From an uncultured delta proteobacterium (lineage in GTDB: Bacteria > Myxococcota > UBA727 > VGSZ01), in assembly GCA_963775425.1 (NCBI GenBank), contig CAVZJB010000008.1, positions 320,001 to 384,000 on the forward strand: a DNA stretch of 64,000 nucleotides, in the 5' to 3' direction. The notes below the pieces were generated by a model. That model did not search any database. It was given only the letters and a program-made list of their open reading frames with translations, and was not told the DNA's origin. Position numbers and translations under genes: made by a program. Every line of letters begins with the position of its first letter. Position 1 is the stretch's first letter. This document shows positions 33,871 to 53,255 of this stretch, in pieces.

Positions 33871-35562
33871 ATGGCAACGACCGAGGAGACCGAGGCCCTG
33901 ATGCTCGCCTATGTGTACGGCGAGCTGTCGGCGTCCGACGCGCGCGACTTCGAGCGGCGCATGGGCGCGGACGCGGAGCTTCGCGCCGAGGTCGAGGGCA
34001 TGCGGGCCGTGCACGATCTCTTCGGCAGGGATCAAGAGTACGGCCAGCGCTCCCTGGTCGACGCGCCCCCGCCCCACCTCGTCGACGCCATCTGCCGCGC
34101 CGAAGCCCTGGCGCGCCCGCCGCAGGTGCGCGAGGCCATGGTCAAGCGCGCGGCGCCGTCGTCGACGTGGACGGCGCGGATGGCGCGCTGGCTCCTGGGC
34201 GGCGGCCTCGTCGTCGGCGCCGCGGCCGCCTTCCTCTTCGTCGTGACGCGCTCCGCGGACAAGGCGGAGATGGCGATGGCGCCGGCGCCCGTGGTCGCCG
34301 CCGCCGACGTGCCCCGCGTGGCCAAGGACAGCAAGCCCATGGGCGGCGCGCCCGCGCCCGAGACCGTCGCTCGAGCGGGCGCCGAGCAGGGACGGGAGGG
34401 AGGGGCGGTCGATCGCTCCGCGGCGGCGAACGAGGCGCCGCCCGCCACCGGCGGCTTCTTCGCCGGTGAGAAGGCCGACCAAAAGGGGGACGTCGCGCTC
34501 GAGACCGAGAGCCGCGCCGCCAAGACGGCGGGTCACCTCGACAGCGCCGCCGACGACGCCAATGACGGGGTCGTGGAAGACCTCGAGGGCATGCGCCTCG
34601 CCGAGAAGCAGGACAAAGCGTCGTCGTCATCGGCGAGCGCGCGTCGCGCCGATGGGCCCGCCCGCGCCCGTACACAGGCGCACGCGTCGCCGGCGTTGCG
34701 CGACGCGCCGGCGGAGATGCCGGACGAGGCCAAAGAAGAAGCGACGGCGAAGAAGGCGCCGCGCCGCGCGCCCGAGGCGAAGGCCAAGGACGTCGCCTCG
34801 CCCGAGCTCGACAGCCTCTCGGGCGCGTCGTCGAACGGCTACGACTACAAGGTCGGCGCCGGCGGGGCCGCGGCGGAGCCGATGCCGTCGTCGGCGATGG
34901 CGCCGCCGGCCGCGCCGCCTCCGCCGCCGGCGAAGGTGGCCGAAGCGGCGAAGCCCGCGGCGCAGAGCGCGCCCGCCGGCGTGGTCTCCAGCGACGAGAT
35001 CGCACGCAAGCGCAACGCCGTGTTGCAGAAGCGGCTCGAGCGCGCCGAGACATCGCCGCGCGCCGCGCAGGCCGACCGCGAAAAGCGCCTCGAGCAGGCG
35101 AACCTCACCTTGGCGTCCGCGCAGCGCGAGCTCGCGCGCAAGGACTACGTGGCCGCGTACGACCTGATGACGAGGGCGGAGCACATCGACATCGACGGCG
35201 CCCTCGGCGCCGAGCCGCAGACGGGCGAGATGAAGGCGCTCCTCGGGCTCAAGCGGCCCGCCGACGCCGCGGCCATCGCGCGGCGCGCGCTGGGCCGGAG
35301 CGTCAAGGTCGGGGGCATCGCCGACGCGTGGCTCATCGGCGTGCAGGCCGCGCAACAGATCGGCGACACCACGCTCGAGCGCGATCTCTGGACGCGGCTG
35401 CTGAAGGTGCCCGCGCACCGCCGCGAGGCGCGCCGGGCCCTGCGCCACCTGAGCGCCCCCGCGGTGCGTGAGAAGGCCGACTTCGACGACGAGGTCGTGG
35501 CGCCGGCCACCACCGCCGCCCCGCGCGCCGCCGCCCCGCCCGCCGACGCCTCCAAGCGCTGA
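33871..35562 (+). CDS. Transmembrane anti-sigma factor with a low-complexity middle and TPR-like C-terminus
   Basis: LAYVYGELS...FE (zinc-less anti-sigma domain), one TM helix, Ala/Pro-rich linker; directly downstream of the ECF gene. Confidence 0.8.
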   Translation: MATTEETEALMLAYVYGELSASDARDFERRMGADAELRAEVEGMRAVHDLFGRDQEYGQRSLVDAPPPHLVDAICRAEALARPPQVREAMVKRAAPSSTWTARMARWLLGGGLVVGAAAAFLFVVTRSADKAEMAMAPAPVVAAADVPRVAKDSKPMGGAPAPETVARAGAEQGREGGAVDRSAAANEAPPATGGFFAGEKADQKGDVALETESRAAKTAGHLDSAADDANDGVVEDLEGMRLAEKQDKASSSSASARRADGPARARTQAHASPALRDAPAEMPDEAKEEATAKKAPRRAPEAKAKDVASPELDSLSGASSNGYDYKVGAGGAAAEPMPSSAMAPPAAPPPPPAKVAEAAKPAAQSAPAGVVSSDEIARKRNAVLQKRLERAETSPRAAQADREKRLEQANLTLASAQRELARKDYVAAYDLMTRAEHIDIDGALGAEPQTGEMKALLGLKRPADAAAIARRALGRSVKVGGIADAWLIGVQAAQQIGDTTLERDLWTRLLKVPAHRREARRALRHLSAPAVREKADFDDEVVAPATTAAPRAAAPPADASKR

Positions 35563-35755
35563 AAGGCTGACGAAGAACAAGGCTCGTAGCACTCGGCGAG
35601 ACCAGGGCGCGCTTGGGCGCTCGGAATCAGCGAAGGCTAGACAACGTCGCCACCGCCGGAGCTCCTTTCCGCTCCGCCGTGTGGCCGGAGCACCGTCCCC
35701 TTCCGGGTGGCTCGGATCAACGGTCCATCGGGCCAGCCCTTACGCGTCAGCCTCT
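35559..35755. repeat. Two-block non-coding element, copy 1 (structured RNA or MITE)
   Basis: Block A 35559-35599 and block B 35640-35694 recur at 53024-53064 and 53201-53255. A 9-bp IR (AGGCTGACG 35564 / CGTCAGCCT 35745) closes this copy. Confidence 0.85.
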
Positions 35756-35881
35756 TGAGCCAAGCGACGAGGGGGGCGGGTGTCGACGTGCTAGCGTCGG
35801 GCCCGTGATCGCAGCGAGCACGACGTGCAGCGCCCGGCGCGGAGCGGACACCGCCCAGCGGCGGGCGCGGGGGGAGCACGC

Positions 35882-37780
35882 GTGACCAAGGGCAGGCGGG
35901 CGGCGGACCGGCGCCGGGAGCGCGGGGGCAATGATCTCCTCGACGACGGCTCCGGCACGCGGCCGGGGGAGATCGTCGATCCACTGCCGTCCGACGAGGA
36001 TGACGACGACGACCTGCCCCTGGTGAGCCAGGTGCGCGAGGTGGAGTCGTCGCAGCCGGTTGAAGGCACCCGCCCGGCCCAGCGCTCGACGCGCGACACC
36101 GGCCCCGAGAACGATCCCGAGGCGTCCTTCGTGAAGGCGGTGCGGCGGTCGTCGCGGGAGACGCACCCGGGCGCGGGGGAGTCGACGGCGGCGCGGGCGG
36201 CCCCCGATCGTCCGCCGCGCCGCGGCGCGCGCGTGATCGTCCTCGAGGGCGCCGACCAGGGCGGCGAGGCGGACATCGAGCTGACGCCGACGCTCGTCGG
36301 GCGCACGGAGTCCGCCGAGATCGGCCTGACGGATCCATGCGTCTCGCTGCGCCACCTCGAGATCCGCTGGTCCGACGACGACGGCTTCACCCTCGAGGAC
36401 GTCGGCTCGCGCTCGGGCACGCTGTTGAACGGCCGCGTCGTCGTCGACGAGGTAGCGCTGCGCCACGGCGACGTCATCGCGCTCGGAAAGACCGAGCTGC
36501 GCTTCGTGCGCGGCGACAAGATCCCGCAGCCGCGCCCCGCGCCCGAGCCCGAGCAGCCGCAGATCGAGCCCACCGAGCGCCTGCCCACCCGCGAGGCCAC
36601 GCGCACCCGCCGCGGGACGGTGCTCGCGCCGCTGGCGCCCACCCAGCGCGTGGTGGAGATGCGCGAGAAGATCCGGCGCACCACGGTGCGCGTGATCGCC
36701 GGCAGCGCGCTGCTCCTCGTCGTCGCCGTGGCGGCCAAGCTCGTCCACGACCGCTTCTTCACCGACGAGGCGCCGGCGCAGATCCGCGCGCAGGTGGCCG
36801 AGCTCCTCGCCGACGGGCGCAACCGGCTGCGCGCGCAGGACGTCGACGGCGCCCGCGCCGCCGCCAACACCGTGCTCGCGCTCGACGACAACAACGACGA
36901 GGCGCAGAGCCTCTTGAAGATGGCCATCACGGAGACGGAGGCGCGCGACGCCATCTCGCTCGCGCTGCGCCTCGGCGACGAGGAGCGCGACGTCGAGGCC
37001 GAGCAGATCTTGAAGCGCGTCCCCGACGCCAGCGTGTTCGCGCCCACGCGCGATCGCCTGCGGCAGACGCTCGACGAGCGCGGCCAGGTGCGGTCGCGCC
37101 GGCACATCGAGACGCTCCTCGATCAAGGCCGCGTGAAAGAGGCCCTCGAGGCGGCCGAGAAGCACATGGCGACGTGGCCCGAGGACGAGGAGGCGCGCGC
37201 CATCTTCGAGCGCGTGAAGGCCGCCCAGGCGGCGATGCCCAAGCACCCGGGCCTCGCCTCGGCGCGCGCCGCGTTCGCCGCCGGCGACCTCGCGCGCGCC
37301 AAGCAGATAGCGCTCGACAACGGCCTCACCGGCTACGCCCACGACGTCGACGACTTCCAGGCGTCGGTGCACAACGGCAAGGCCGCCCTCGCGCGCTTCG
37401 ACGACGCCGCCGCCGACACGCTCGACCGCGCCTTCCGCCTCCTGCACGCGCTCGGCGGCGACGCGTCGTCGCCGGTGTTCGCCGGCGTGCGCAAGCCCTA
37501 CGCCAAGGCGCTGCTCGTCGCCGGCACCGCCAAGCTCGACAAGAACCCCTGCGCGGGCGCGCGGCAGCTCTACCGCGCCGCCCGCGTCACGCCCGACGAT
37601 CCGGCGATCGAGGCCAAGCTCAGGGACCTCGACGCCCGCGCCGTCGCCGCCCTCGACCGCGCCCGCGCCGCCAAACAGGACGACGCCGAGCGCGCCGCCG
37701 CCATCGCCCGCGAAGGCGTCTGCCTCGCCCGCGTCGGCTCCAGGACCTACGAGGCGCTCCGCTCCCTCTCCCGCCTCTGA
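35882..37780 (+). CDS. FHA-domain membrane protein with a helical/TPR-like C-terminus
   Basis: LVGR, DPCVSLRH, EDVGSRSGTLLNG, GDVIALGKT; one TM helix. Confidence 0.85.
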   Translation: MTKGRRAADRRRERGGNDLLDDGSGTRPGEIVDPLPSDEDDDDDLPLVSQVREVESSQPVEGTRPAQRSTRDTGPENDPEASFVKAVRRSSRETHPGAGESTAARAAPDRPPRRGARVIVLEGADQGGEADIELTPTLVGRTESAEIGLTDPCVSLRHLEIRWSDDDGFTLEDVGSRSGTLLNGRVVVDEVALRHGDVIALGKTELRFVRGDKIPQPRPAPEPEQPQIEPTERLPTREATRTRRGTVLAPLAPTQRVVEMREKIRRTTVRVIAGSALLLVVAVAAKLVHDRFFTDEAPAQIRAQVAELLADGRNRLRAQDVDGARAAANTVLALDDNNDEAQSLLKMAITETEARDAISLALRLGDEERDVEAEQILKRVPDASVFAPTRDRLRQTLDERGQVRSRRHIETLLDQGRVKEALEAAEKHMATWPEDEEARAIFERVKAAQAAMPKHPGLASARAAFAAGDLARAKQIALDNGLTGYAHDVDDFQASVHNGKAALARFDDAAADTLDRAFRLLHALGGDASSPVFAGVRKPYAKALLVAGTAKLDKNPCAGARQLYRAARVTPDDPAIEAKLRDLDARAVAALDRARAAKQDDAERAAAIAREGVCLARVGSRTYEALRSLSRL

Positions 37781-37801
37781 CGCGCCGCCGCGCGCGCCCA
37801 G

Positions 37802-38569
37802 CTACGGCGCGCGCAGGGGGGCGACGCCCACGCGGCGGGCGCTCGCTTCGTAGAAGGGCGCGCACAGGCGCTCGTCGATGGACGCGCGCGCGCGCCGCTC
37901 GGCGACCCAGTACGCGCCGCTGTCGTCGACGTCGCCGGCGGCGAGGAGCACCGAGGTGCGCGCGCCCTCGTCGAGGCTGTCGGGGCCGTTCATGTCGAAG
38001 CCGGCCTTCAGAAGCTTGGTGGAGACCACGCCCGGGTGGCAGGCGTTCACCTTCACGCCGGGGGCGCGCCGCGCGAGCTCCACGGTGAACAGCACGTTGG
38101 CCAGCTTGGACGCGGCGTACGCGCCGTAGGCCGAGAACCCGCGCGCCATGTCGATGTCGTCGACGTCGATGCGGCCGCGGGTGTGGGCGACGGAGCTCAC
38201 GTTCACCACGCGCGGATCCTTCGACGCGCGCAGCCGCGCCAGGAGCAGGTGCGTCAGCAGGAAGGGAGCGTCGTGGTTGACCGCCATGCTCATCTCGCGA
38301 CCGTCGGCGGTGAGCGCGCGGCGCTTCATGTAGACGCCGGCGTTGTTCACGAGGACGTCGAGCGCTTCGATCTGCCCGGCGAGCGCGCGCACGGCGTCGA
38401 GCGAGGACAGCTCCGCCGCCACCGCCCGCTTGGCGTCGACCTCGGCGCGGGCGCGCTCGGCTTTCTCCTGCGTGCGCCCGTGGACGACGACGTCGAAGCC
38501 GCGCGCGGCGAGCTTGCGGGCCGTCTCCTTGCCGATGCCGTCGGTGGCCCCCGTGACGAGCGCGATCAT
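37802..38569 (-). CDS. SDR family oxidoreductase (retinol dehydrogenase-like)
   Basis: TGATDGIG, NNAG, VNVSS.AH, YAASK, HPGVV; GGAGG RBS. Confidence 0.92.
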   Translation of the reverse strand: MIALVTGATDGIGKETARKLAARGFDVVVHGRTQEKAERARAEVDAKRAVAAELSSLDAVRALAGQIEALDVLVNNAGVYMKRRALTADGREMSMAVNHDAPFLLTHLLLARLRASKDPRVVNVSSVAHTRGRIDVDDIDMARGFSAYGAYAASKLANVLFTVELARRAPGVKVNACHPGVVSTKLLKAGFDMNGPDSLDEGARTSVLLAAGDVDDSGAYWVAERRARASIDERLCAPFYEASARRVGVAPLRAP

Positions 38570-38665
38570 GATGCCTCCCGCCGCCAGCATCCCACGGGGC
38601 GTGACACAGGACACGCCGCCGCGCGCGGGCGCGGCCGGACGCGGTCTCTCCGCCCGCGGAGCGGC

Positions 38666-38694
38666 TTGCATTTGATATGCACGCTTATCATAAT
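38666..38694 (+). promoter_or_regulatory. Sigma70 promoter with an overlapping palindromic operator (likely MarR)
   Basis: TTGCAT-N17-CATAAT; IR TGATAtGC-ac-GCtTATCA at 38673-38690, in an AT-rich island. Confidence 0.7.
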
Positions 38695-38719
38695 AGATCT
38701 TACCAACCAGGAGGCGGTC

Positions 38720-39352
38720 ATGAAGGTGCTCATCATCGGCGCGACGGGAGCCACGGGGGCGATGGCGGTGCAGCAGGCGCTCGACGCCGGGCACGAGGTG
38801 GTGGCGCTCGCGCGCGCGCCCGAGAAGCTCGCCGTCACCCACGCGCGGCTGACGGTGGTGCAGGGTGACGCCACCCGCGCCGGCGACCTCGCGCGCGCGC
38901 TGCCCGGGGTCGCGGCCGTCGTCGCCATCCTGAGCCCGCGCAGGAAGGACGACGCGGTGCGTTCGCAGGCGGCGCGCGCGCTCGTCGAGGAGATGAAGCG
39001 CGCGGGCGTGGCGCGCCTCGTCTGGGTGAGCGCGTCGGGCGTCGGCGACAGCCTCGCGCAGGCGGCCAGGTCGTCGTTCGTGTTCGGGCGCGTCATCGTC
39101 CCGCTGTTCATGAAGGCGCAGTTCGCCGACGCCGCCGTCGCCGAGGAGGCCGTGCGCGAGAGCGACCTCGACTGGACCGTGGTTCGCCCGGTGCAGCTCG
39201 TGAACGCCCCCGCGCGCAACGACGTCGGCGCGTCGCTCGACGGCGAGAAGCTCACGCGCCTTCAGATCCCACGCGCCGACGTCGCCGCGTTCCTCGTCGC
39301 GCAGGTGACGTCCGACGCGTACGCGCGGCGCATGCCGGTGATCCATGGCTGA
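38720..39352 (+). CDS. NAD(P)-binding oxidoreductase (flavin/biliverdin reductase-like atypical SDR)
   Basis: IIGATGATG, SDLDWTVVRP, IPRADVA; AGGAGG RBS. Confidence 0.9.
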   Translation: MKVLIIGATGATGAMAVQQALDAGHEVVALARAPEKLAVTHARLTVVQGDATRAGDLARALPGVAAVVAILSPRRKDDAVRSQAARALVEEMKRAGVARLVWVSASGVGDSLAQAARSSFVFGRVIVPLFMKAQFADAAVAEEAVRESDLDWTVVRPVQLVNAPARNDVGASLDGEKLTRLQIPRADVAAFLVAQVTSDAYARRMPVIHG

Positions 39353-39803
39353 GCCGCGGCCTACGGAGACGGGCGGCCCCCTGGCCAGCCCGGGGTGGCA
39401 CCTTTGGCAGGCGGCGCTGCGCTGGAAGAACGCCGTGCGCACCGCACTCGCGCCGCACGGGCTCACGCCCACGCAGTTCTTCGTGCTCGGCGCCGCCGGC
39501 TGGATGGAGAGGACCGCGGGCGCGCCCCGCCAGAAGGACGTCGCCGCGCTCGCCGGGCTCGACCTGATGACGACGTCGCAGGTGGTGCGCGCCCTCGACA
39601 AGGCCGGGCTCCTCGCGCGCCACGACGACCCAGACGACGCGCGCTCCTGGCGGCTGTCGCCCACGCCGGCTGGCCGCGCCGTCCTCAAGAAGGCCGCCGC
39701 CGCCGTGCGCGCCGCCGACGCCGCGTTCTTCGCGAAGATCCCCGCGCGCTTCGTCGACGCCGTCGACGGGCTCGGCGAAGAGCCGTCGATGGCTCGCTCT
39801 TAG
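39345..39803 (+). CDS. MarR family transcriptional regulator
   Basis: SPGWHLW, GLTPTQFFVL, QKDVA, TSQVVRAL, DDARS..L.PT.AG. Confidence 0.92.
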   Translation: MAEPRPTETGGPLASPGWHLWQAALRWKNAVRTALAPHGLTPTQFFVLGAAGWMERTAGAPRQKDVAALAGLDLMTTSQVVRALDKAGLLARHDDPDDARSWRLSPTPAGRAVLKKAAAAVRAADAAFFAKIPARFVDAVDGLGEEPSMARS

Positions 39804-40921
39804 AACGCGCCGCCGAAGCGGATGAGCGTCCCCGGCGGCGCCTTGTCGACGTCGTGCATGTCCGGGATCTCGCGGGTCTGCCCGTAGCGGGCGAGGACGT
39901 CATCGCGCCAGTTCTTCACGGCGTCGCGGTTGTGGCGGTAGGCGCCGGCTACGGCGCCGAAGACGCCGCCGGCGTACCAGCCGAGCTCGAACACGGTGAG
40001 CACCGCGGCCACGGCGAAGTCGCCCGTGAGCCACGCCGACGCCGCCGCGAAGATGAACAGGGAGTTCCACACGAGCGAGGTCACGCCGGTGCCCCACTGC
40101 CCCAGGTAGAAGTGGCCGAGGCCGGGCACGATGGACAACACGCCCGCGAGCAGCGGGTCCTTGAGCTCGACGTCGTCCTTGGCGTCGATGGCCTTCACGA
40201 TCCCGAGCGCGTCCTTGGCGTGCATGCCCTTTTGGTCCGCGAGCTCCTGGAAGTAGACGCGCGCCTGATCGAGCTCGCCGGCGTCGAAGTGGCCCCACGC
40301 GAGCAGCCACCTGGACTGCACCTTCAGCGTCTTCGGCGTGCCGCCGTCCTCGACGAGCAAACGGAAGCGCGGCTTGGCGAGCTCCGGGCGGTTGTCGAGC
40401 AGGTACGCGCGGCCCGCGCCGAACAGCGCCGCCTGGCGAAGGTCGATGGTGCCCGCGCGCTGCGCGACGCCGTCGAGCTGACGGCCCGCGGCGTCCCACT
40501 GCTCGCCGCGCGCGAGCGCCTCCCCGATGGCGAGCGCCGCGCGCTCGGCCTCGTTCCCGACGCCCTTCACCTGCCACAGATAGCGGCGGTACTCGGTGAT
40601 GGCCCGATACCAATCGCCGTCGCGAAACAGGTGGTCCGCGAACGCCAGCGTCTGCAGTTGCTCCGCCGTCGGCTCGGGCGCGGGCGCGACCGCGCTCGTC
40701 GCCGGGGGCGGCGCCGCGTCGCTTGGCGCGGGGGCCGGCGCGTCGCTCGTCGCGGGGGCGGACGCGTCGGTGGCGGCGCCGTCGGCCGCGGGCACGGCGG
40801 CGGCCTTGTCCGCGGGCGCGGGCGCGGCGGGGGCCTTGCCGGCGGGCGCGGCGTCGTGCGCAGGCGTGTCGGCGGCGGCGGGGGCGGCGCTCAAAAACAG
40901 GGCGGTGGCGATGGCGATCAT
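39800..40921 (-). CDS. Secreted TPR protein with a TM2-like C-terminal region
   Basis: Signal peptide, FADHLF..GDWYRAITEY, KDPLLAGVLSIVPGLGHFYLG. Confidence 0.75.
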   Translation of the reverse strand: MIAIATALFLSAAPAAADTPAHDAAPAGKAPAAPAPADKAAAVPAADGAATDASAPATSDAPAPAPSDAAPPPATSAVAPAPEPTAEQLQTLAFADHLFRDGDWYRAITEYRRYLWQVKGVGNEAERAALAIGEALARGEQWDAAGRQLDGVAQRAGTIDLRQAALFGAGRAYLLDNRPELAKPRFRLLVEDGGTPKTLKVQSRWLLAWGHFDAGELDQARVYFQELADQKGMHAKDALGIVKAIDAKDDVELKDPLLAGVLSIVPGLGHFYLGQWGTGVTSLVWNSLFIFAAASAWLTGDFAVAAVLTVFELGWYAGGVFGAVAGAYRHNRDAVKNWRDDVLARYGQTREIPDMHDVDKAPPGTLIRFGGAF

Positions 40922-41652
40922 GGCGTCTCGTGCGGGTGATCGGAGGCGTCGCTCTTGGGGAGCGCAATCGCGGGGAGGGTCGCGCGGGCGAGCTTCTTTT
41001 GGGGCAGCGGCGGCAGCTCGAGCGGCTGCTCGTCGGCGTGCGGGGGCAAGCCGGTGAAGCGCTCGGCGTGCCAGAACTCGTAGTTGGTGATGGGGTCGTA
41101 CACGCGCGTGCCGCCCCAGCCCTCCACCTCGGGGAAGCGGCGGATGGGCGTGGACTCGCTCGGCGCGATCACACGGTCGAGGGTCATCACGATGCCGAGC
41201 AGGCCGTGGCGCGCCACCGCCTGCGCGCCGAAGCGCGAGCAGGTCGGCAGGTGCGTGCAGCGCGGGCCGTCGATCTTGGTGATGAGGTTCGCGTATCCGA
41301 GCGACGCCAGGTACAGCGGGCTCGACGACAACCCCGGCCCCACGACGTTCGGCCCGCGCCCCGGCCCCTTGTCGAGCGCGAGCTCGGGGATGTCCGGGTC
41401 CATGCGCAAGGGCGGCGGCGGCGGCCCCTCGCCGGGCACCTTGGCCGCGTCGCCCACCGCGGGGTGCGCGTGGCGCGCCTTGCCCTTTTGCCCCTGGCGG
41501 ACGACGTCGCGGACCGCGCCGGCGTCGAAGGGCCCAAACGGCTGTTTGTCCTCGGCGCGCGCGCCGGCGGCGAAGAGCGCGACGGCGCACCCGGCCAGCG
41601 CGCAACGCGACGCGCGTGTGGGCCACGACGGGAGGGAGCGGCCGCCGCTCAT
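40918..41652 (-). CDS. YidD-like domain protein with a signal-like N-terminal extension
   Basis: GPRCTHLPTCSRFGAQAVARHGLLG...DR and YDP. Confidence 0.7.
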   Translation of the reverse strand: MSGGRSLPSWPTRASRCALAGCAVALFAAGARAEDKQPFGPFDAGAVRDVVRQGQKGKARHAHPAVGDAAKVPGEGPPPPPLRMDPDIPELALDKGPGRGPNVVGPGLSSSPLYLASLGYANLITKIDGPRCTHLPTCSRFGAQAVARHGLLGIVMTLDRVIAPSESTPIRRFPEVEGWGGTRVYDPITNYEFWHAERFTGLPPHADEQPLELPPLPQKKLARATLPAIALPKSDASDHPHETP

Positions 41653-43457
41653 CGCTGGCCCGGCGCCGCGTTCGTCGGCGGCGACGCGTTCGTCGGCGGC
41701 GGCGCGGCGGGGCTCGGCTGCGGCGCGCCCTCGCCCTTGTCCCTGCGGCGCCGGCCGTCGGGATCTTTCTGGTCGGCGCGGGCGCGCGTCACCGCCTGCT
41801 TGATCGGCTCACGATCGTCCTTGATGGCGTCGAGCGCCTTCCTGGCCTCCGGCAGCGGCGCCGCGCCGAGCGCGTCGATGACGCCGACGAGGTCGGCGAC
41901 GCACAGCTTGGGCCCGGCGCCGTCGAGCGCCTTCACGGCGTTCTTCGCCTGCTCCTCACCCGACGACGCCATGGCGGTGACGGCGCGGCAGACGCGGCAG
42001 GTGGACGTCTTCGCGAGCGGCGCCAGCGCCTTGCCGACGAGCTTCGGCGACTTGCGCACCAGCGCCCGCCGCGCGGCGCGCACCCGGTTTGCCCCCTCGT
42101 CGCCGCCGGCGACCACCTTTTCGCCGGTCCTCTTGGCGAGCGCGGGATCGAACGGCGAGGCGCGGAACGCTTCGTCGAGCGCTTCGGTGGCGTCGACGTC
42201 CGCCTTGCCCACGAGGTGCGCCGCCGCGCGCGTGACGTTCAGCCGGCCGTAGTCACCGTCCATCGCCACCGCCCGCTGGGCCGCGCGGCCCATGCAGCCG
42301 GTGTCGCCGAGGCCTGCGCAGGCGTCGGCCAGGAGCCACGAGATGTCCTCGTCGACGGGCAGCCGCGGCGGCCCCTTGATGAACGGGTTCAACAGCTCGG
42401 CGGCCGCCTTGTAGTCGCCCTTCTTCTGCGCGAGCAGCGCCTTGAGCGCCGCCGTCTCCTTGGCGTAGCCCGCGCGCGGCGAGAGCGTGGAGAGGATGGT
42501 CTGCACCTCGGCTTCGTCGCCGTCCTTCCGGGTCAGCGAGCGGCCGAGCCAGTAGAGCACCTCGCCGCGCCGGCCCTCATCGAGGTTCTTTTCGGAGCCC
42601 TTCAACAGCGCGATGCCCTCGTCGATGGACCTGGGCGTCCCCTCGAGCACCAGCGCGCGCCCGCGCACGGCGTCGAGCCACGGGTGGCTCTTGACGGCGG
42701 CCGCCTCCTTGACCGCCTCGGGGTAGAGCCCGACGTCGAGATAGAGCTCCGCGAGCAGCGCGTGCGCGCGCGCCGAGTCCGGGCGCGCCGCGAGCACCTT
42801 CTCGAGGTCGCCGTGGACGTCGTCGAGCGTGCCGCCCGTCATCTTCTGCGCGAGCGCGAGGAAGAGGTGCGGGTCGGCGGTGGCGGTCGGCGTGCTCTCG
42901 ACGAGCTGCACCAGCGTCTTGGCGTTGGCGAGCGAGCCGACGGCGGCGTCCACGAGCGCGCGCGCTCCCTGGCCCACCGGCGACGCCGCGTTGAGCGTGG
43001 CTGCATAGGTGGCCAGGCCGCGCGCGTCGGTGAGGCGATCCTTGTACCCGGTGACGGTGGGCTCGAGGACCAACGAGGCGGCGAGGAGCGCCACCGCCTC
43101 CGAGCGGTCGATGTCGGTGGCGGCGGACTTGTACCAGGAGACCGCGAGCTCGCCGGCCCGCTTCTCCGAGCCGGGCGTCAGCTCGTGGAACGCGTCGAGC
43201 ACCGGGGTCGCCGACGTCACCTTGGCGGCGTCCGCCGGCAGCGCCTGCACGCGCTTCTCGAGCACGCGCTGCCCCCAGGCGGGCGTGGCCATGTTGGGGA
43301 AAGGAGGGCGCGTGTCGCCGTCGACCGGCTTGGGCGCCTTGGGTGTCCCCGCGTCGACCACCTTCGACGGCGACGACGGGCAAGCGGAGAGCGCGAGCGC
43401 GCCGCCGGCGGCAACGGCGACGACGACGCGGGCGAGGAGCGGTCGGAGGGGTCGCAT
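41649..43457 (-). CDS. TPR-containing lipoprotein
   Basis: Lipobox LSAC; helical TPR-like repeats (ARAHALLAELYLDVG). Confidence 0.75.
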   Translation of the reverse strand: MRPLRPLLARVVVAVAAGGALALSACPSSPSKVVDAGTPKAPKPVDGDTRPPFPNMATPAWGQRVLEKRVQALPADAAKVTSATPVLDAFHELTPGSEKRAGELAVSWYKSAATDIDRSEAVALLAASLVLEPTVTGYKDRLTDARGLATYAATLNAASPVGQGARALVDAAVGSLANAKTLVQLVESTPTATADPHLFLALAQKMTGGTLDDVHGDLEKVLAARPDSARAHALLAELYLDVGLYPEAVKEAAAVKSHPWLDAVRGRALVLEGTPRSIDEGIALLKGSEKNLDEGRRGEVLYWLGRSLTRKDGDEAEVQTILSTLSPRAGYAKETAALKALLAQKKGDYKAAAELLNPFIKGPPRLPVDEDISWLLADACAGLGDTGCMGRAAQRAVAMDGDYGRLNVTRAAAHLVGKADVDATEALDEAFRASPFDPALAKRTGEKVVAGGDEGANRVRAARRALVRKSPKLVGKALAPLAKTSTCRVCRAVTAMASSGEEQAKNAVKALDGAGPKLCVADLVGVIDALGAAPLPEARKALDAIKDDREPIKQAVTRARADQKDPDGRRRRDKGEGAPQPSPAAPPPTNASPPTNAAPGQR

Positions 43458-45007: not shown

Positions 45008-45045
45008 CCCGCGAAGCTACCAAAGCCGGGCTAGTCTTCGGCGCC

Positions 45046-46077
45046 ATGCGACCCGACAAGCAGCGGCTGGTTCATATCACGGAGACCACGCTCGACGAGC
45101 CGCGCCTCTGGGTGACCGAATACGGCGAGGCGGACCACCGGGTGCGCGAGGTGAAGCCCGAGGAGCTCGCCGGCCTCACCACCGGCGACGGCGTCGTGTG
45201 GGTCAACGTCGACGGGCGCCAGGACGAAAAGACCGTCGCCGCCCTCGGCGAGCGCTTCGGGCTCCACCCGCTGCTGCTCGAGGACGTCACCAACATGGAG
45301 CAGCGGCCCAAGCTCGAGGAGTACGTCGGCCTGGTGTTCGTGGTGATGAAGATGCTGCGTACGGACCCGGACGCCGAGCGCATCTACGTCGAGCACATGA
45401 GCCTCATCCTCAAGGACAAGCTCGTCATCACGTTCCAGGAGCGCGTCGGCGACGTGTTCGACGACGTCCGCAAGAGCCTCAAGAACGCCACCGGCAAGAT
45501 CCGCAAGCTCGGCGCCGACTACCTCGCCTACCGCCTCGTCGACGCCATCGTCGACAACTACTTCGTCGCTGTCGACGCCATGGCCGAGCTCGTCGAGACC
45601 ATGGAGACGCAGATGACCGAGGACCCCAAGGGCATCGAGGCCAACGAGCTGCACATGCTCAAGCGCGAGAGCCTCTTCCTGCGCAAGGTGGTGGTCCCCG
45701 CGCGCGAGATCATCGCCACCTTCTCCAAGCTCGAGGACACCGCGCTCATCCAGCCGGTCACGCACGTCTACCTGCGCGACGTCTACGACCACACCGCGCA
45801 GGTGGCCGAGAACCTCGACGTTCAGCGCGGCATCCTCGCGTCGATGACCGACGTGTACCACGCGTCTTTGTCCAACCGGCTCAACGAGGTGATGAAGGTG
45901 ATGACCATGGTGTCCACGATCTTCATCCCCTTGAGCTTCATCGCGGGCGTCTACGGCATGAACTTCCGCTACATGCCCGAGCTGCACGAGCGCTGGGGCT
46001 ACCCCGTGGTGCTGGCGGTGATGATCGTCGCCGCCATCGGCATGCTCGCGTTGTTCAAGCGCAAGCGGTGGTTCTAG
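45046..46077 (+). CDS. corA: Magnesium/cobalt transporter CorA
   Basis: [39 protein letters not shown]. Confidence 0.96.
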
Positions 46078-46088
46078 AACGGTTGTCG

Positions 46089-46251
46089 GGGAGCGGGGAG
46101 CGGTCACGTGTACGGCAAGCGCGTGCGGCGCACGTGCGCGGTCACGGTGAGGGGGACCGCGAGCGCTCCCGTGACCGCGAGTCGCAGGAGCTGCCCGTCC
46201 GTCGCCGCGCACGCGCGTGGCCGTGGACGGCGGCTGCAGCCGCCCGCTCCC
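46089..46251. repeat. Nested imperfect palindrome (REP/MITE-like)
   Basis: GGGAGCGGG (46089) / CCCGCTCCC (46243) outer IR; perfect 11-bp inner IR at 46137-46147 / 46169-46179; further pairings between them. Confidence 0.5.
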
Positions 46252-46338
46252 GCAGCGCGCCTGGCGTCGTCCATCTCGTGAAGCCCCGGATCGACAGGCC
46301 ACGTTGGCACGCCCGGCGCCGACCGCTACAGGGGGGCG

Positions 46339-47457
46339 ATGGCGGACACGCTCGTGGTGGCGATCATGGCGGGGGGCGCGGGCACGCGCTTCTGGCCGGC
46401 GTCCACCGAGCGGCGGCCCAAGCAGTTCCTCGCGCTCGCCGGCGAGCGCACCCTCCTGCAGCAGAGCTACGACCGCGCCCGGGCGCTCACCGACAAGATC
46501 TTCGTCGTCACCAACGCCGCGTTCATCGGGCTCGTCGGGGAGCAACTGCCGCAGCTCGGGCCCGGCGACGTCGTCGGCGAGCCCGAGCGCAAGGACACCG
46601 CCGCCGCCGCGGTGCTCGCCACGCTCCTCGCCGAGCGGCGCTTCCCCGGCTGCACGCTCGTGATCCTCACGAGCGACCACGTCATCGGCCCCGTCGACGA
46701 ATTCGCGCGGACGGTGCGCGCCGCCGCCGCCGACCTCGCCGCCGGGGCCGGCGACGCCCTGTACACCCTCGGGATCCCGCCGGCCTTCCCCGCCACCGGC
46801 TACGGCTACCTCGAGCTCGGCGCCCCCGTCGACGACGTCGAGTCGGCGCCGTCCGGGCCGGCCGGCGTCGTGCGCCGCTCGGCGGTGCAGCGCTTCGTGG
46901 AAAAGCCCGACGCGGCGACCGCGAAGCGCTACGTCGACGGCGGCCGGCACCTGTGGAACAGCGGCATGTTCGTGTGGCGGGCCGCCGCCGCGCTCGCGCA
47001 GATGCGCGAGCACCTGCCGCAACACGTGGCCGCGCTCGAGCCCGCGGCCGCCGCCCTCGCCGATCCCGCGGCGTCGGACGCGGCGCGCGCGGCGGCGATG
47101 GCGCAGGCGTTCGCGGCGGTGCCCAAGGTGTCCGTCGACTACGGCCTCATGGAGAAGGCCCGCAACGTCCGCTGCGCCGCCGCCACCTTTTCGTGGAGCG
47201 ACGTCGGCTCGTTCGCCGCCCTCGCCGAGCACATGCCCGAGGACGCGCAGCAAAACGCGCACCGCGGCCGCGTGGCCTCGCTCGACGCGCGCGGCAACGT
47301 GGTGTGGTGCGAGGACGACGGCGAGCTGGTCGCGCTCCTCGGCGTCGACGACCTCGTCGTCGTCCGCGCCGGCAAGCGCACGCTCGTGACGCGCAAGTCC
47401 CGGGCCGAGGACATCAAGAAGCTCGTCGACACGCTCGACAAAGGGGACCGCTCATGA
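46339..47457 (+). CDS. manC: Mannose-1-phosphate guanylyltransferase
   Basis: [13 protein letters not shown]...[46 protein letters not shown]. Confidence 0.93.
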
Positions 47458-48818
47458 CGCTCAAGTGCTTCAAGGCCTACGACATCCGCGGCAAGGTCCC
47501 ATCGGAGCTCGACGAAGACCTCGCGCGCAACATCGGCCGCGCCTACGCGCAGCTCGAAAAGCCGCGCCGCGTGGTCATCGGGCGCGACATGCGCCTGTCC
47601 TCCGAGGCCATCGCCGGGGCCCTCGCCGACGGCTTGCGCGAGGCCGGGGTCGACGTCGTCGACATCGGCCTCGGCGGCACCGAGCTCGTCTACTTCGCCG
47701 CGTTCCACCTCGAAAAGGACGGCGTCGACGGCGGCATCGCCGTCACCGCCAGCCACAACCCCGCCGACTACAACGGCATGAAGCTCGTGCGCAGAGGCGC
47801 CGTCCCCATCAGCGGGGACACGGGCCTCAAGGACATCGAGCGCCTGGCCGAGCAGGGCTTCGCGCGCGCGGCGCCCACGGGCAAGCGCGAGACGGTCGAC
47901 GTGTGGCCGGCGTACATCGAGCACCTCTTGTCGTACGTGGACGTCAAGGCGCTCGCTCCGCTCAAGATCGTCGCCAACGCCGGCAACGGCTGCGCCGGCC
48001 TCGTCGTCGACAAGCTCGAGGCGCGGCTGCCGTTTTCCTTCATCAAGGTGCACAACGAGCCCGACGGCACCTTCCCGAACGGCGTCCCGAACCCCATCCT
48101 GGTCGACAACCACCCCGCCACCGCCGACGTCGTCCGCGCCCACAAGGCCGACCTCGGCCTCGCCTGGGACGGCGACCACGACCGCTGCTTCTTCTTCGAC
48201 GCCGGCGGCGCGTTCATCGAGGGCTACTACATGGTCGGCCTGTTCGCCTCCGAGCTGCTCGCCAAGCAGCCCGAGGGCACGGCGGTGGTGCACGACCCGC
48301 GGCTCGTGTGGAACACCATCGACCTCGTCGAGCGGGGCGGCGGCCGCCCGGTGATGTCCAAGACCGGCCACGCCTTCATCAAGGAGCGCATGCGCAAGGA
48401 GAACGCCGTCTACGGCGGCGAGATGAGCGCGCATCACTACTTCAGGGAGTTCGCCTACTGCGACTCCGGCATGATCCCCTGGCTGCTCCTGACGTCGACG
48501 ATGTCGCGCACCAAGAGCTCCCTCGCGGAGCTCGTGGCGGACATGCAGCAGCGTTTCCCGGCGTCGGGCGAGGTGAACCTCACCATCGCCAATCCCAAGG
48601 CGGCCCTCGACAAGGTGCGCGCGACGTTCGGCCCGGGCGCCGTGCGCATCGACGAGACCGACGGCATCTCCGTGGAGCACGAGACCTGGCGGGTCAACGT
48701 GCGCTCGTCCAACACCGAGCCCGTGGTGCGCGTGAACGTCGAGTCCCGCGGCGACGCCGCGCTCATGCGCGCAAAGACCGACGAGGTGCTGGGCCTCCTC
48801 CGCGGGCTCGCGGGGTGA
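47454..48818 (+). CDS. manB: Phosphomannomutase (CpsG/ManB)
   Basis: [37 protein letters not shown]. Confidence 0.95.
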
Positions 48819-49294
48819 ACCCGCTCAAGCGCGCCGGCGACGCGTACCAGCGCGACGCGATCATCCCGCACTGCGCGAGCTGCGCGCGGCCCTGCTGCAA
48901 GCTCGACGACGTCGTGCTCGACCTCGACTGGAAGCGCGCGCAGGCGCTCTACCAGATCAAGTCCTCGCGGCGCGCCTTCAATCGCTCGCTCCACGACGGC
49001 AGCGGGCCCACCACCATCCAGGAGCACCACGGGCGCTACTACGCCCACGGCGCGCCCTGTCCGGCCTACGACGGCGGCGGCCGCTGCCGCGTCTACGGCA
49101 CCGACGTCAAGCCGCCCTCGTGCAGCGACTTCCCCGTCTACCTCGACGGCGACGGCCTCACCGCCGACACCCGCTGCGAGGCCGTCGACGTCGACGCCCT
49201 CGAGGCCCACCTGCGCGCCGCGTTCCCCGCCAAGCGCGTGCGCCGCGCGGTGGACCCGAGCTTCCCGATGTTCGTCACCTTCGACGTCGAGTGA
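48815..49294 (+). CDS. YkgJ-like cysteine-cluster protein
   Basis: [19 protein letters not shown]...KPPSCSDFP. Confidence 0.75.
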
Positions 49295-49385
49295 GGGCGC
49301 GGCCTCGCGGGAGGTCCCACGCGGTGTGCCGCCGGTCACGGCCGGCGGGGTTGAATATATCACTCGTTCTATTACCCGGGGTCAC

Positions 49386-50834
49386 ATGATGATGCGCCCC
49401 CTCGCCCTCGCGTTCCTGTTCGCGCTCCCCCTCGCCGCCGCCTGCGATCCCGGCGGCGCGGGCGAGGGCGAGGGCGACGCCGCCGAAGGAGAGGGCGAAG
49501 GCGACGCCGGCGAGGGCGAGGGCGAAGGCGAGGGCGAAGGAGAAGGGGAAGGAGAGGGCGAAGGCGAAGGAGAGGGCGAAGGAGAGGGCGAAGGAGAGGG
49601 CGAAGGAGAGGGCGAAGGCGGCCTCTGCGAGAACACCTGCGCGCTCGACTTCAGCTTCGGCGGCTGCGACGACGGCTACTCCGATCCGGACTTCCAAAGC
49701 TGCTCCTACGGCACCGACTGCGCCGGCTGCGGCACGCGCCCGTTCCCCACCGCCGACGCGCCGTCGACCTGGACCGCGACGTTCTTCGGCGGCATCGACG
49801 TCGGGCCGGTGGGCACCGGCAACACCCCGCTGCGCGCCGCGTTCGCGCGCGGCTACGTCGACGGCGGCGGCCGCCTCGTCACCACCGCCGAGGTGCAGTC
49901 GTCGTCGGGCACCACGGAGCGCGAGGTGCTCGTGTTCGACGCCACCACCGGCGCCCCCATGTGGCGCGGGCCCACCGCCGACATCGCGCTCGCGCACCCG
50001 TCGGGGGACATCGTCACCGTGAGCGGCTTCGACGTCCGCCGCGTCACGGCGCGCCACGACAACATCTGGCGCGCGCCGCTCGCCGACGTCATCGCCGCCG
50101 CCGGCGGCTCCGGTGGGCAGTCCCTGGAGGACGCCTTCGTCGACGCCCAGGGCCACGTGTGGGTCCTCGCGTTCGCCTTCAGCGGCAGCACCTTCGTCCT
50201 CGAGCTCGACGGCGAGACCGGCGACGGCGTCGACGCCTGGGAGCTCCCCGGGCGCGCTGGCGGCGCCTTCGCCCAGGAGACCTCCTCGGGCCGCGTCCTC
50301 GTCTTCGACGCCGAGACCGACGGCGCCGCCGCCACCATCAGCGCCGTCACCCCCGGCAACGCCAACGTCGACGAAGACGTCGCCACGCTCGCCGTCGCCG
50401 GCTTCCCGCGGGTCGCGGTGGCCGCCGGCGCGCGCGTCGTCGTGGCGGTCGACGACGCCGGCGCGTTCTCGCTGGCCTCGCTCGACGCGAGCCTCGCCGA
50501 GCTCGACGCCCCGGTGGACCTCTCGGGCGCGCCGGCCACCGTGGAGTCCGCGGACCCGCCGCGCCTCATCGCCGAGGGCGACGGCGTCCGCTGGGTGCAG
50601 CCCTTGAGCTACCTGCAAGGCGACGGCGGCGGCGTGGTCGTCGACGTCAGCTACGGCGGCATGCTCCAGAGCTGGGCCGCGGACCTCACGCCGGGCACGC
50701 CCTCGTTCATCGGCGCGGACCGGAACCTCTCGCTCGACGACGTCGTCGACGCCGACGGCGGCGTCGTCACGCTCACCACGGACGGCGGCAACTTCCTCAT
50801 CCTGCACCGCGGACCCGCGCCCGTCCTCGAGTAG
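49386..50834 (+). CDS. Lipoprotein with a long GE repeat, Cys motif and beta-propeller-like body
   Basis: Lipobox AAAC; (GE)18; CENTC...CDDG...C..GTDC..CG; acidic beta-rich domain. Confidence 0.8.
   Translation: MMMRPLALAFLFALPLAAACDPGGAGEGEGDAAEGEGEGDAGEGEGEGEGEGEGEGEGEGEGEGEGEGEGEGEGEGEGGLCENTCALDFSFGGCDDGYSDPDFQSCSYGTDCAGCGTRPFPTADAPSTWTATFFGGIDVGPVGTGNTPLRAAFARGYVDGGGRLVTTAEVQSSSGTTEREVLVFDATTGAPMWRGPTADIALAHPSGDIVTVSGFDVRRVTARHDNIWRAPLADVIAAAGGSGGQSLEDAFVDAQGHVWVLAFAFSGSTFVLELDGETGDGVDAWELPGRAGGAFAQETSSGRVLVFDAETDGAAATISAVTPGNANVDEDVATLAVAGFPRVAVAAGARVVVAVDDAGAFSLASLDASLAELDAPVDLSGAPATVESADPPRLIAEGDGVRWVQPLSYLQGDGGGVVVDVSYGGMLQSWAADLTPGTPSFIGADRNLSLDDVVDADGGVVTLTTDGGNFLILHRGPAPVLE
49509..49616 (+). 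repeat. (Gly-Glu)18 coding repeat
   Basis: GGN-GAR hexamers with mixed synonymous codons. Confidence 0.9.
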
Positions 50835-50850
50835 CGCTTGATCGACGCGC

Positions 50851-50881
50851 AAAAAGAGAGGGCGCCCGACGGCGCCCTCTC
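50851..50881 (-). terminator. Rho-independent terminator
   Basis: GAGAGGGCGCC-cgac-GGCGCCCTCTC perfect 11-bp stem with an A5 run on plus (U5 on minus), between convergent genes. Confidence 0.85.
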
Positions 50882-50907
50882 CCACACACACGGACGATCG
50901 GAAATGG

Positions 50908-51231
50908 TCAGACCACGCTCACCGGGCGGTTGTTGGAGGGCGCGCTGGGGGCCGAGGCCACGGGAGCGACGTCGGGCTCCGTAGGCTTCAGCTTCTTGAT
51001 GTTGTCCACGATGGCGGAGACCATGTTCTTCACGCGCTCGCTGATGGCCTGCTGCGGCGGGGGCTGCTTGGCGACCTTCTTGCGGGCGTCGGCGCGGAGG
51101 CCCTCCATCACGTCATCCTGGTTGAAGCCGGGGCGATCGCGGCGCTGGGCCTGGGCGATCGGCATGCTGATGTCCTGCGAGGGGGCCTGAACCTTGTGGC
51201 AGCCGCCGGAGTTGCAAACCTTGTGGCACAT
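50908..51231 (-). CDS. Small hypothetical protein with an N-terminal CHKVC..GGCHKV repeat
   Basis: GGAGG RBS, ATG, 107 aa, followed by a terminator; divergent from ECF operon 2. Confidence 0.7.
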   Translation of the reverse strand: MCHKVCNSGGCHKVQAPSQDISMPIAQAQRRDRPGFNQDDVMEGLRADARKKVAKQPPPQQAISERVKNMVSAIVDNIKKLKPTEPDVAPVASAPSAPSNNRPVSVV

Positions 51232-51388
51232 GAGGGACCTCCAAATCGGCGTTGTGGGTTGTTTGCCGAAGACAAGTTGGTTCTCGGTCTCGCTGCCTCG
51301 GTGCATCTTTCGGGCGATCCCCCGATAGGACCGGGTCCTACGTGTAGGCTTTGCGGGCGGCCCCGCCCGCGGGTCGAGGAGTGACGTG

Positions 51389-52030
51389 ATGGCGCAGAGC
51401 GCACCCCTCCTGGCCGCAGAGGCCGTCCCCCCGCGGCCGAAGGACCCGTTGCGGGCCCTGTTCGAGCAGGCCCGCGGGGGCGACGCCGGGGCCCTCGAAC
51501 GCCTGTGCGCCGAGATGCGCCCCCGGCTGTACCGGGTGGCCTGGGCCATCGTGAAGGACGCCGACGAGGCCGACGACGTGGCCCAGGAGGCCCTCATCCG
51601 GGCCCTGAAGCGGCGCTTCCTGTTTCTCGGCAAGGGCAGCGTGGCGGGGTGGATGACCCGCATCGCCCAGAACCTCGCCAAAAACCGGCTGCGCGACGGC
51701 AAGCGCCGCCGGGAGATCCTGGAGGCCGCGCTCCCGGACGAACGCAGCGTCCGGGGGGCGGAGGCGCAGGCGCTCCACGCGCCCGACGCCGTCGCCGCAC
51801 ACAAGCAGGCGCGCGCCCGGCTGATCGCCGCGGTGGACGCCCTCCCCGAGCGCCAGCGGGACGTCGTGCGCTTGCACGCCGTCGCGCAGCTCGAGTTCGC
51901 CGAGGTCGCCGAGGCGCTCGGCATGACCGAGGCCAACGCGCGGGTCACGTTCTCCAACGCCAAAAAGAAGCTCGTCGCCGTGCTCGGAGAGGCCGCCGCC
52001 CCCTCCGCCACGAAGGAGAAGTCGCCATGA
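51389..52030 (+). CDS. ECF RNA polymerase sigma factor (operon 2)
   Basis: GDAGALERL, ADDVAQEALIRA, WMTRIAQNLAKN, LPERQRDVV, EVAEALG; GAGGAG RBS. Confidence 0.93.
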   Translation: MAQSAPLLAAEAVPPRPKDPLRALFEQARGGDAGALERLCAEMRPRLYRVAWAIVKDADEADDVAQEALIRALKRRFLFLGKGSVAGWMTRIAQNLAKNRLRDGKRRREILEAALPDERSVRGAEAQALHAPDAVAAHKQARARLIAAVDALPERQRDVVRLHAVAQLEFAEVAEALGMTEANARVTFSNAKKKLVAVLGEAAAPSATKEKSP

Positions 52031-52425
52031 CCGACCGCGATCCCATCGAGACCGAGCTCGCCGCGCTCGCCCCGCCGCCGCGCCGCACCGACGCCGCGTT
52101 CGCGCGCGCCGTCGCCGCCGGCGTCGCCCGGGGCAAGAGCGCGGGCCGCGGCTCCCTCTTCGCCCTGCCGGCGTTGGCGGCGGCGGCGGCGGCGTTCGCC
52201 CTCGTCGTCACCGTCGGCAACCCGGAGCGTTCCGTCGTCGACGCCGGCGTGCGCGTGGCCGTCGCCCACCCCGTCGCCCATCCCGTCGCCGCGCCCGCCG
52301 AGCAGATCGACGCGTCCTGGGACGACGAAGACGACTTTGCGCTTCCGTCGCTCGACGGGTCTTCGGATGAAGAGCTCGCGCGCCTCGATCGAGCCCTCGA
52401 CGAGGCGCTCAAGAACAAGCCCTGA
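52027..52425 (+). CDS. Small membrane protein, probable anti-sigma factor
   Basis: ATGA overlap with the sigma gene; one TM helix; acidic C-terminus. Confidence 0.7.
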   Translation: MTDRDPIETELAALAPPPRRTDAAFARAVAAGVARGKSAGRGSLFALPALAAAAAAFALVVTVGNPERSVVDAGVRVAVAHPVAHPVAAPAEQIDASWDDEDDFALPSLDGSSDEELARLDRALDEALKNKP

Positions 52426-52436
52426 GGAGAGAAACC

Positions 52437-53027
52437 ATGCGCCGCACCCTGCTCGTCACCGCCCTCGCCACCGCCCTCGCCGGCGCCGTCGCCATGCCCG
52501 CCTTCGCCGACGCCCCACCGCCCCCCGGACCGGGCATGCGCGCCGGCGCGCACGGCGGCCCCGGCGGACCCGGCGGCGCCCGCCGCGAAGAGATGCGCGC
52601 GCGCGTGCAGCAGAAGGTGCAGGCGTTCCTCACCACCGAGCTGCAGTCGCGCGTCGGGCTCGACGCGACCAAGAGCGCCAAGCTCTCCGACGCCATCCAG
52701 GCGCACATGGAGCGCAAGCACGCGCGCGCCAAGCAGTTGCGCGAGGAGATGAAGAAGCTGCGTGGCCTCGTCGACGGCAAGGCCAGCGACGCGCAGATCA
52801 AGGCGCAGCTCGACCGCGTGCTCGGCGCCTCCAGCCGCGACGACGACGCGCAGGCCTTCATCGGCGACACCTCGAAGTTCCTCTCGGTGCAGGAGCAGGC
52901 CAAGCTCGCGCTGGCGTTGCCCGACGTCCTCAAGGAGGTCCACCACATGATGCGCTCGTCCCACCGCGAGATGCGCGGCGGCCGCGGCGGCTTCGGCGGC
53001 AGGGGACCGGCGGACGACGAGGACTGA
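52437..53027 (+). CDS. Periplasmic Spy/CpxP/heavy-metal-sensor-like protein
   Basis: Signal peptide (AFA), Gly/Pro-rich segment, helical body with LSVQEQAKL; GAGGAG RBS. Confidence 0.75.
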   Translation: MRRTLLVTALATALAGAVAMPAFADAPPPPGPGMRAGAHGGPGGPGGARREEMRARVQQKVQAFLTTELQSRVGLDATKSAKLSDAIQAHMERKHARAKQLREEMKKLRGLVDGKASDAQIKAQLDRVLGASSRDDDAQAFIGDTSKFLSVQEQAKLALALPDVLKEVHHMMRSSHREMRGGRGGFGGRGPADDED

Positions 53028-53255
53028 AAGGCTGAAAAACAAGGCTCGTAGCCGCACTCGGCGAAGCCGCCCACAAGGTGGCTCGCCGCGCGGAGTACGC
53101 GGCGAGGCACGTCGGCGCGCAAGAACCGCTGCAGGTTGTGAGGAAACGGCGGGTCCGAGCGGTGTTGTGATCCCGCTATCAGCGCACGTGGCGGGTTCGT
53201 GACAACGTCGCCACCGCCGGAGCTCCTTTCCGCTCCGCCGTGTGGCCGTAGCACC
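53024..53255. repeat. Two-block non-coding element, copy 2 (structured RNA or MITE)
   Basis: Block A 53024-53064; block B 53201-53255 is 54/55 identical to 35640-35694; hairpin-rich 136-nt insert between them. Confidence 0.85.

Follow-up and report, generated by a model that had tools for sequence, protein, structure and literature searches.

Related Systems

According to the available parts of their descriptions, the staphylococcal elements IS1272 and TnSha1 insert into hairpins, many of which are terminators, with partial deletion of the target and no duplication (PMC4923244, PMC5678879). These hairpin targets show no sequence specificity and are entered in both orientations (PMC4923244), and IS1272 was located 3, 15 and 66 bp downstream of genes (PMC5678879). 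ISPse1 from Paracoccus seriniphilus, as far as its available description goes, is a functional IS1182-family element of 1,653 bp with 16-bp inverted repeats and a 4-bp duplication (PMC3281130). [quoted passage not shown] Here, two short repeats (copy 1 and copy 2) were studied in a 64,000-nucleotide window of an uncultured delta proteobacterium (GenBank assembly GCA_963775425.1, contig CAVZJB010000008.1, positions 320,001 to 384,000 of the forward strand). Each of them directly follows the TGA stop codon that ends an operon with an extracytoplasmic function (ECF) sigma factor. A preliminary description, made from the letters of the window alone, had taken them either for a regulatory RNA family derived from 3' untranslated regions (3'UTRs) and tied to ECF stress operons, or for a non-autonomous mobile element that targets stop codons.

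The family to which these repeats belong resembles IS1272/TnSha1 in the family of its transposase (NF033551), in its short terminal inverted repeats and in its placement just behind genes. Unlike them, it lies exactly on TGA and in one orientation, shows no excess of palindromes at its sites, and has relatives with TGA at both sides. ISPse1 is comparable, judging by its description, in its similar size and short target duplication, and the available description gives neither a target sequence nor an association with gene ends (PMC3281130). In the RU-1/ERIC repeats, fusions that lengthen or truncate proteins are described as occasional, whereas 55 of 59 copies of the present family sit on a native stop and leave the protein unchanged; in addition, the parent insertion sequence (IS) of the present family is known. 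No report of systematic, oriented insertion on native stops by IS1182-family elements or MITEs was found in the literature searched, with ISfinder/TnPedia and subscription journals outside that search. What the window holds is mobile-DNA remnants of an ordinary kind, unusual in how precisely they sit on stop codons.

Parent Insertion Sequence and Its Derivatives

The genome-wide BLAST search that the preliminary description had proposed was run on the whole assembly (8.26 Mb, 72% G+C, 18 contigs). The two window copies gave matches on all 18 contigs. The longest related copy, at C17:334184-335912, is near-full-length with 1,729 bp and carries TGA at both sides. With this copy as the query, 85 chained loci were obtained, among them about 60 left ends. 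The left border is sharp: when one copy was searched together with its flanks, the number of matches rose from 1-5 to more than 50. Since the same sequence recurs at 85 loci, the similarity of the two window copies is far beyond chance.

The ends of the parent are 10-bp terminal inverted repeats, AAGGCTGACG and CGTCAGCCTC, complementary at 9 of 10 positions. The minus strand of the C17 reference copy, opposite to that of the host gene upstream, carries a frameshifted transposase gene preceded by a long hairpin. Three pieces in different frames match the NCBIfam profile NF033551 (IS1182 family transposase, length 488) at positions 26-183 (E = 2.4e-32), 187-343 (E = 1.4e-24) and 411-484 (E = 6.7e-13). 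Because the gene is broken, every single piece scores under the whole-protein cut-off of 270 bits. The Pfam domains DUF772 and DDE_Tnp_1_6 were also found.

Members of the IS1182 family are about 1.3-1.95 kb long. By its DDE transposase match, its inverted repeats and its size of 1,729 bp, the parent belongs with this family. Both window repeats are thus very probably non-autonomous, internally deleted remnants of one IS1182-family insertion sequence, and the mobile-element alternative of the preliminary description is supported, with 55 of 59 left ends on an in-frame stop. Four other candidates, an integron attC site, a selenocysteine insertion sequence (SECIS) element, a group II intron and an IS200/IS605 end, were dropped in view of the inverted ends and of the IS1182 transposase.

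Apart from the C17 reference, all of the 85 loci are internal-deletion derivatives, with many breakpoints, some of which are common to several copies. The 1519/1583 breakpoint (numbering of the reference) recurs in 13 copies at different loci, and three others, 491/1384, about 286/1087 and 221/1468, were each seen by eye in 3 copies. The deletions fall at repeats or hairpins, where recurrence could arise.

At the DNA level, none of 30 related genomes contained the element, except for one marginal match of 32 nt (E = 6.5e-4). The transposase protein was matched in 3 of 37 other genomes of the class, and the best of these (51% identity) is a decayed fragment with no recognisable ends. Intact homologues of about 415 aa are common in metagenomes and are 60-82% identical to the 157-aa N-terminal piece of the C17 transposase. 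The assembly itself holds three intact IS1182-family transposase genes at the start of contig C14 (935-2413 and 3403-4881 on the plus strand, 5137-6639 on the minus strand), which show no DNA similarity and no common ends with the family studied here. Two of the three sit within a 2.47-kb tandem duplication.

Association with Stop Codons

A 28-nt stretch from the left end served as the anchor, and the junctions of 59 copies were analysed with it. Two more matches had no such anchor, and copy 1 was missed by the 28-mer. TGA precedes the left end in all 59 copies, always in the same orientation. For 55 copies, no stop interrupts the reading frame that leads to this TGA over at least 90 upstream codons, and the G+C content at third codon positions (GC3) of that frame is at least 0.87, which identifies the TGA as an in-frame native stop; the other frames have a GC3 of about 0.4-0.8, and a high value is the signature of real genes in this genome. 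Three of the four exceptions are found 0-5 nt behind a TGA stop (TGATGA twice, TGAgcTGA once). As the preliminary description had claimed, both window copies begin at the TGA of the last gene; the starts that it gave, 35559 and 53024, are the C preceding each stop.

The association was also compared with crude gene calls (5,053 genes, 83% of the genome). The junction TGA is the stop of a called gene in 46 of 59 copies, against 13% expected for any non-genic TGA (binomial p = 1.7e-29). If a longer motif is assumed, the expected share at stops becomes 24% for CTGA, 32% for CTGAG, 34% for CTGAGC and 29% for GCTGAGC. Placement on stop codons is about 3-7 times commoner than the motif alone predicts. 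Base -1 is C at 81% of the sites and at 42% of all TGA stops. The association with stop codons is genuine and widespread in this genome.

Upstream proteins were examined for truncation. In at least eight of them (PolA, YchF, TauE, TonB_C, a Fis-type helix-turn-helix protein, Methyltrn_RNA_4, GATase and HATPase_c), the terminal Pfam domain is whole and reaches to 0-9 residues from the stop. For YchF, 80 metagenome loci were available, and in 29 of 29 checked, the stop comes directly behind the residue aligned to the last residue in this genome; these loci are at best 53-62% identical, and are informative on the native C-terminus only, not on empty sites. The upstream proteins are thus not truncated, and their native stops are preserved.

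Probable Target Site in Relatives

A single transposase piece as the query for related loci gave no match. An alignment of 23 transposase homologues led to 80 loci from genome records, 28 of which have recognisable ends typical of the clade (GAGCCTGTGAA...). In 27 of these 28 relatives from other genomes, TGA or TCA stands at both junctions: 16 have C-TGA before the insertion sequence and TGA-G behind it, and 11 have the reverse complement with TCA. Where a relative has several copies in different surroundings, the junction type stays constant (3/3 and 2/2). These junctions support a 3-bp duplication of TGA in fixed orientation.

Possible Causes of the Stop-Codon Bias

The proposed mechanism is as follows. 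The DDE transposase would insert at TGA, preferably in the context C-TGA-G, and would duplicate the TGA. Because of this duplication, the host gene would keep its stop codon and remain unharmed. An added preference for gene ends would then concentrate the insertions on stops over other TGAs. We tentatively propose that the IS1182-type lineage and a second related repeat family home to gene stop codons as a safe harbour, a reading that we regard as quite possible but short of probable. The transposase would recognise the gene-end TGA in one orientation and duplicate it, and its cue would have to be more than the short motif: something connected with termination of translation or transcription, for example, or footprints left by earlier insertions. 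Such a choice of target is not described for insertion sequences in the papers searched.

Several results weigh against parts of the main explanation, in which the repeats are remnants of an element that inserts at TGA and duplicates it. The first concerns the right flanks in this genome: among the 24 copies that keep the right end, 8 have TGA at the very start of the flank, and tolerance of a displacement by 1-2 nt raises this number to 11; TG opens the flank in another 5, and 8 give no sign of TGA. Since so few right flanks carry TGA, the duplication is deduced mainly from the relatives. Secondly, only 3 of the 28 relatives adjoin the stop of a long, high-GC3, coding-like open reading frame (ORF), about what is expected of an untargeted element. 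Therefore, the stop preference is not general to the clade, and the strong bias belongs to the family in this genome. Thirdly, the crude gene calls probably inflate the count of non-genic TGAs through missed genes and thereby depress the expected share at stops. The last two points concern mobility. A family search of the assembly (94.55% complete) found fragments but no intact cognate transposase gene. In addition, since most copies differ in their remaining internal deletions, many of them may be full-length insertions that decayed in place rather than MITEs that moved after shrinking.

The best surviving alternative is that the target is simply TGA, in the context C-TGA-G, without any targeting of gene ends, and that insertions within genes were lost by selection. 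The relatives, with TGA or TCA at both junctions and mostly away from stops, behave in this way, and both the inflated count of non-genic TGAs and the rise of the expected share with a longer assumed motif narrow the gap to be explained. Even so, that share reaches at most 34%, against the 55 of 59 copies seen (46 of 59 with called genes), and three of the four exceptions still lie just behind a TGA stop. In addition, no copy breaks a recognisable gene, yet CTGAG occurs 3,093 times inside genes and 546 times at stops. We consider this explanation unlikely, though it keeps an appreciable weight.

The other two explanations considered are both improbable, to a similar degree. In the first, the element would recognise hairpins or terminators as IS1272 and TnSha1 do, cut the stem and partially delete the target, and the TGA would be part of the element itself. 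About half of the copies indeed have no TGA in the right flank. Convergent gene ends are slightly over-represented (25 convergent and 21 co-directional downstream genes vs 1,509 and 2,243 genome-wide, p = 0.07), a weak result that is confounded by spurious ORFs inside the elements. The fixed orientation of all 59 copies does not agree with TnSha1, which is described as inserting in both orientations (PMC4923244). Next to the right end, perfect palindromes (5 bp or longer, starting at most 8 nt away) are no commoner than elsewhere: they accompany 6 of 36 pattern matches, some of them non-element sequences, vs 19% of 3,728 ordinary TGA stops. Moreover, the junction is at the stop codon itself, not at varied distances behind it, and the relatives show clean TGA or TCA at both sides.

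In the second, the element would be drawn to the TGA bordering the left end of a resident repeat family, F2 (TGAGCGGCGTKACGAC...), an end that is like its own inverted repeat. A clear F2 signature was found within 300 nt downstream at 10 of 59 loci, compared with 91 of 5,053 genes, and at least 10 of the 24 right flanks, that of the full-length copy among them, were seen by eye to begin like F2. The remaining 49 loci have no recognisable F2 downstream, and with F2 as the target the question merely shifts to why F2 sits on stops. The probability left over by targeting and by a TGA target with selection is shared by the hairpin and resident-element explanations and by causes that we have not thought of.

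If targeting rather than survival accounts for the bias, the family would represent a new safe-site strategy for a DDE transposon, and it could possibly serve as a tool for tagging gene ends.

Proposed Regulatory RNA and Link to ECF Operons

A structured regulatory RNA family, derived from 3'UTRs and serving ECF stress operons, was the other proposal of the preliminary description. It has in its favour that two copies in one window end sigma-factor operons, that a copy also closes a third ECF operon, outside the window, and that the repeat sequence contains hairpins. The genome holds 32 Sigma70_r4_2 loci. A copy on the same strand, at most 5 kb downstream, was counted as linked, and by this measure the operons of 3 loci end in a copy: both loci of the window and one on C18. 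The third is an ECF-type sigma locus at C18:212707-214229 on the minus strand, with a downstream 446-aa ORF that ends at the element copy. Without the two copies that prompted the comparison, one further case among 58 is at chance level, the probability of at least one being about 0.25-0.31. The proposed check for ECF enrichment thus came out negative, with 3 of 60 copies at the end of ECF operons and the other 57 behind unrelated genes.

The diversity of the upstream genes is also seen in their protein families. From the 59 left ends, 56 upstream ORFs were long enough for a Pfam scan; that of copy 1 is outside this set. Functionally diverse families were identified in 37 of the 56, among them Hsp70 (DnaK), DNA polymerase I (PolA), YchF, CTP synthase (PyrG), methylmalonyl-CoA mutase and TauE, as well as TonB, kinases, PilZ, radical SAM and others. 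None of the 56 scanned ORFs carries a sigma or anti-sigma Pfam domain.

Rfam 15 gave no match at gathering scores in the whole window. At E values up to 1, there was no match around copy 1 and one chance-level match around copy 2, which lies outside the element. The latter is a weak match to Yfr1, a cyanobacterial family, at 53264-53318 on the plus strand, between copy 2 and the convergent gene. It scores 17.4 bits, where the gathering score is 38 (E = 0.44), and was taken as chance. The fold z-scores of the two copies, -1.18 and -2.24, are not unusual for their composition, and the closing stem in the predicted fold of copy 1 is formed by its two inverted ends. The 55-nt block common to both copies (block B) was compared in 13 genomic copies, which vary at 4 columns. 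Since each of these columns differs in a single copy, no covariation is possible in block B, and no compensatory changes were seen. Consensus scans found no promoter-like or terminator-like sites in either copy.

The repeat sequence is the end region of a transposase-bearing insertion sequence and lies behind unrelated genes at about 60 left ends, and with neither an Rfam match nor covariation, the ECF-linked RNA reading is contradicted and retains hardly any probability: the repeats are not a regulator of sigma-factor operons. That two of about 60 copies came to lie at these two ECF operons is a coincidence. Such repeats put identical sequence into dozens of 3'UTRs and can seed rearrangements between gene ends. 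They also serve as a warning for annotation: what looks like a conserved "structured 3'UTR element" may, in a GC-rich genome, be the end of a transposon.

Anatomy of the Window Copies

The features of the two loci are collected in Table 1. Copy 1 is MITE-like, with no transposase and both terminal repeats, while copy 2 is a truncated remnant. Copy 1 keeps the segments 1-29, 363-382, 1468-1519, 1583-1666 and 1715-1729 of the C17 reference, and one base (T, 35755) separates its right end from the right-flank TGA. In copy 2, the left repeat is degenerate, with 3 nt missing, and the right inverted repeat is absent, cut off at 53255. The ORF that ends at copy 2 has a stop frame open for 218 codons upstream, with a GC3 of 0.98.

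The near-identity of the 55-nt block in the two copies, as first described, was confirmed. This block is the long hairpin of the parent minus its interior (1520-1582), which was deleted at a GGAGC repeat. The deletion variant is present in 13 genomic copies, and the undeleted arm is kept in 31. Block A of the preliminary description corresponds to the left, transposase-distal end of the insertion sequence. The two blocks had been thought to flank variable inserts. The inserts do differ, but they are not foreign: both are retained segments of the same 1,729-bp parent, 363-382 plus 1468-1496 in copy 1 and 41-177 in copy 2. The divergence of the two sigma factors was also confirmed (30% identity, 53/178), and the genes that end at the repeats are unrelated, as had been stated (E = 1.5).

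Table 1. Coordinates of the two element copies and of their surroundings in the window; reference positions are those of the 1,729-bp C17 copy.
Feature	Position	Strand	Evidence or remarks
ECF-type sigma gene, operon 1 (context)	33067..33774	+	Pfam Sigma70_r2 9.3e-19, Sigma70_r4_2 8.6e-16, Sigma70_ECF 7.4e-10
563-aa ORF, no Pfam family; its TGA stop adjoins the left end of copy 1	33871..35562	+	
TGA stop of the upstream ORF, left flank of copy 1; putative target duplication	35560..35562	+	
Copy 1, 192 bp, both inverted ends kept	35563..35754	+	BLAST map to C17 reference
Left terminal inverted repeat of copy 1, AAGGCTGACG	35563..35572	+	
55-nt block B in copy 1	35640..35694	+	reference 1497-1519 joined to 1583-1620
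Right terminal inverted repeat of copy 1, CGTCAGCCTC, 9/10 complementary to the left one	35745..35754	+	
Second TGA, right flank of copy 1; putative other copy of the duplicated target	35756..35758	+	
ECF-type sigma gene, operon 2 (context)	51386..52030	+	Pfam Sigma70_r2 1.8e-14, Sigma70_r4_2 2.1e-12
196-aa ORF, no Pfam family; its TGA stop (53025-53027) adjoins the left end of copy 2	52437..53027	+	
Copy 2, 228-bp remnant	53028..53255	+	reference 1-177, 1497-1519, 1583-1620
55-nt block B in copy 2	53201..53255	+	54/55 identical to 35640-35694
Convergent sigma-54 activator/response-regulator gene downstream of copy 2 (context)	53291..55129	-	Pfam Sigma54_activat 1e-38, Response_reg 5.5e-24

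Other Repeats in the Genome

The F2 repeat has a left end of the form TGA(nn)TGAGCGGCGTKACGACATTCACGGCGG..., followed by ...GACGACGTCGTGCCCCGCCGCGAATGTCTACGCCGCG..., as seen at C8:280744, C12:260085 and C17:424561. A strict 19-mer finds 30 copies, and a loose pattern of the 5' end gives 92 matches, false ones included. The first TGA of F2 frequently serves the preceding gene as its in-frame stop, and the F2 end is similar to the inverted repeat of the insertion sequence studied here. A sister element, apparently a third family related to these and inserted at the TGA border as well, has a right end ...GATGGATCACGTTGCGCGTCACCCTT, followed by TGAGC and then by F2, for example at C9:234453(-), C14:161650 and C17:424952(-).

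Closely behind 40-58 called stops (within 33 nt), 8-mers such as CGCTCCCT, CTCCGGTC and TCCGGTCG show an 11-12-fold enrichment and point to yet another post-stop repeat. Four gene ends (C4:511155, C12:77296, C12:121801(-) and C18:248343) have the tail ctgTGAgacgtcctgtgtcaaccaccgcGCTGCGTCACGC in common, which is either a gene end present several times or one more small repeat. At C8:178940-178985, a short palindromic repeat rich in G+C, CGGGGGACAAGCCCCCGCC..., has about 70 BLAST matches and looks similar to repetitive extragenic palindromic (REP) sequences. Finally, identical sequence is found at the end of C16 (about 1333435) and at the start of C17 (about 134), probably a repeat that broke the assembly.

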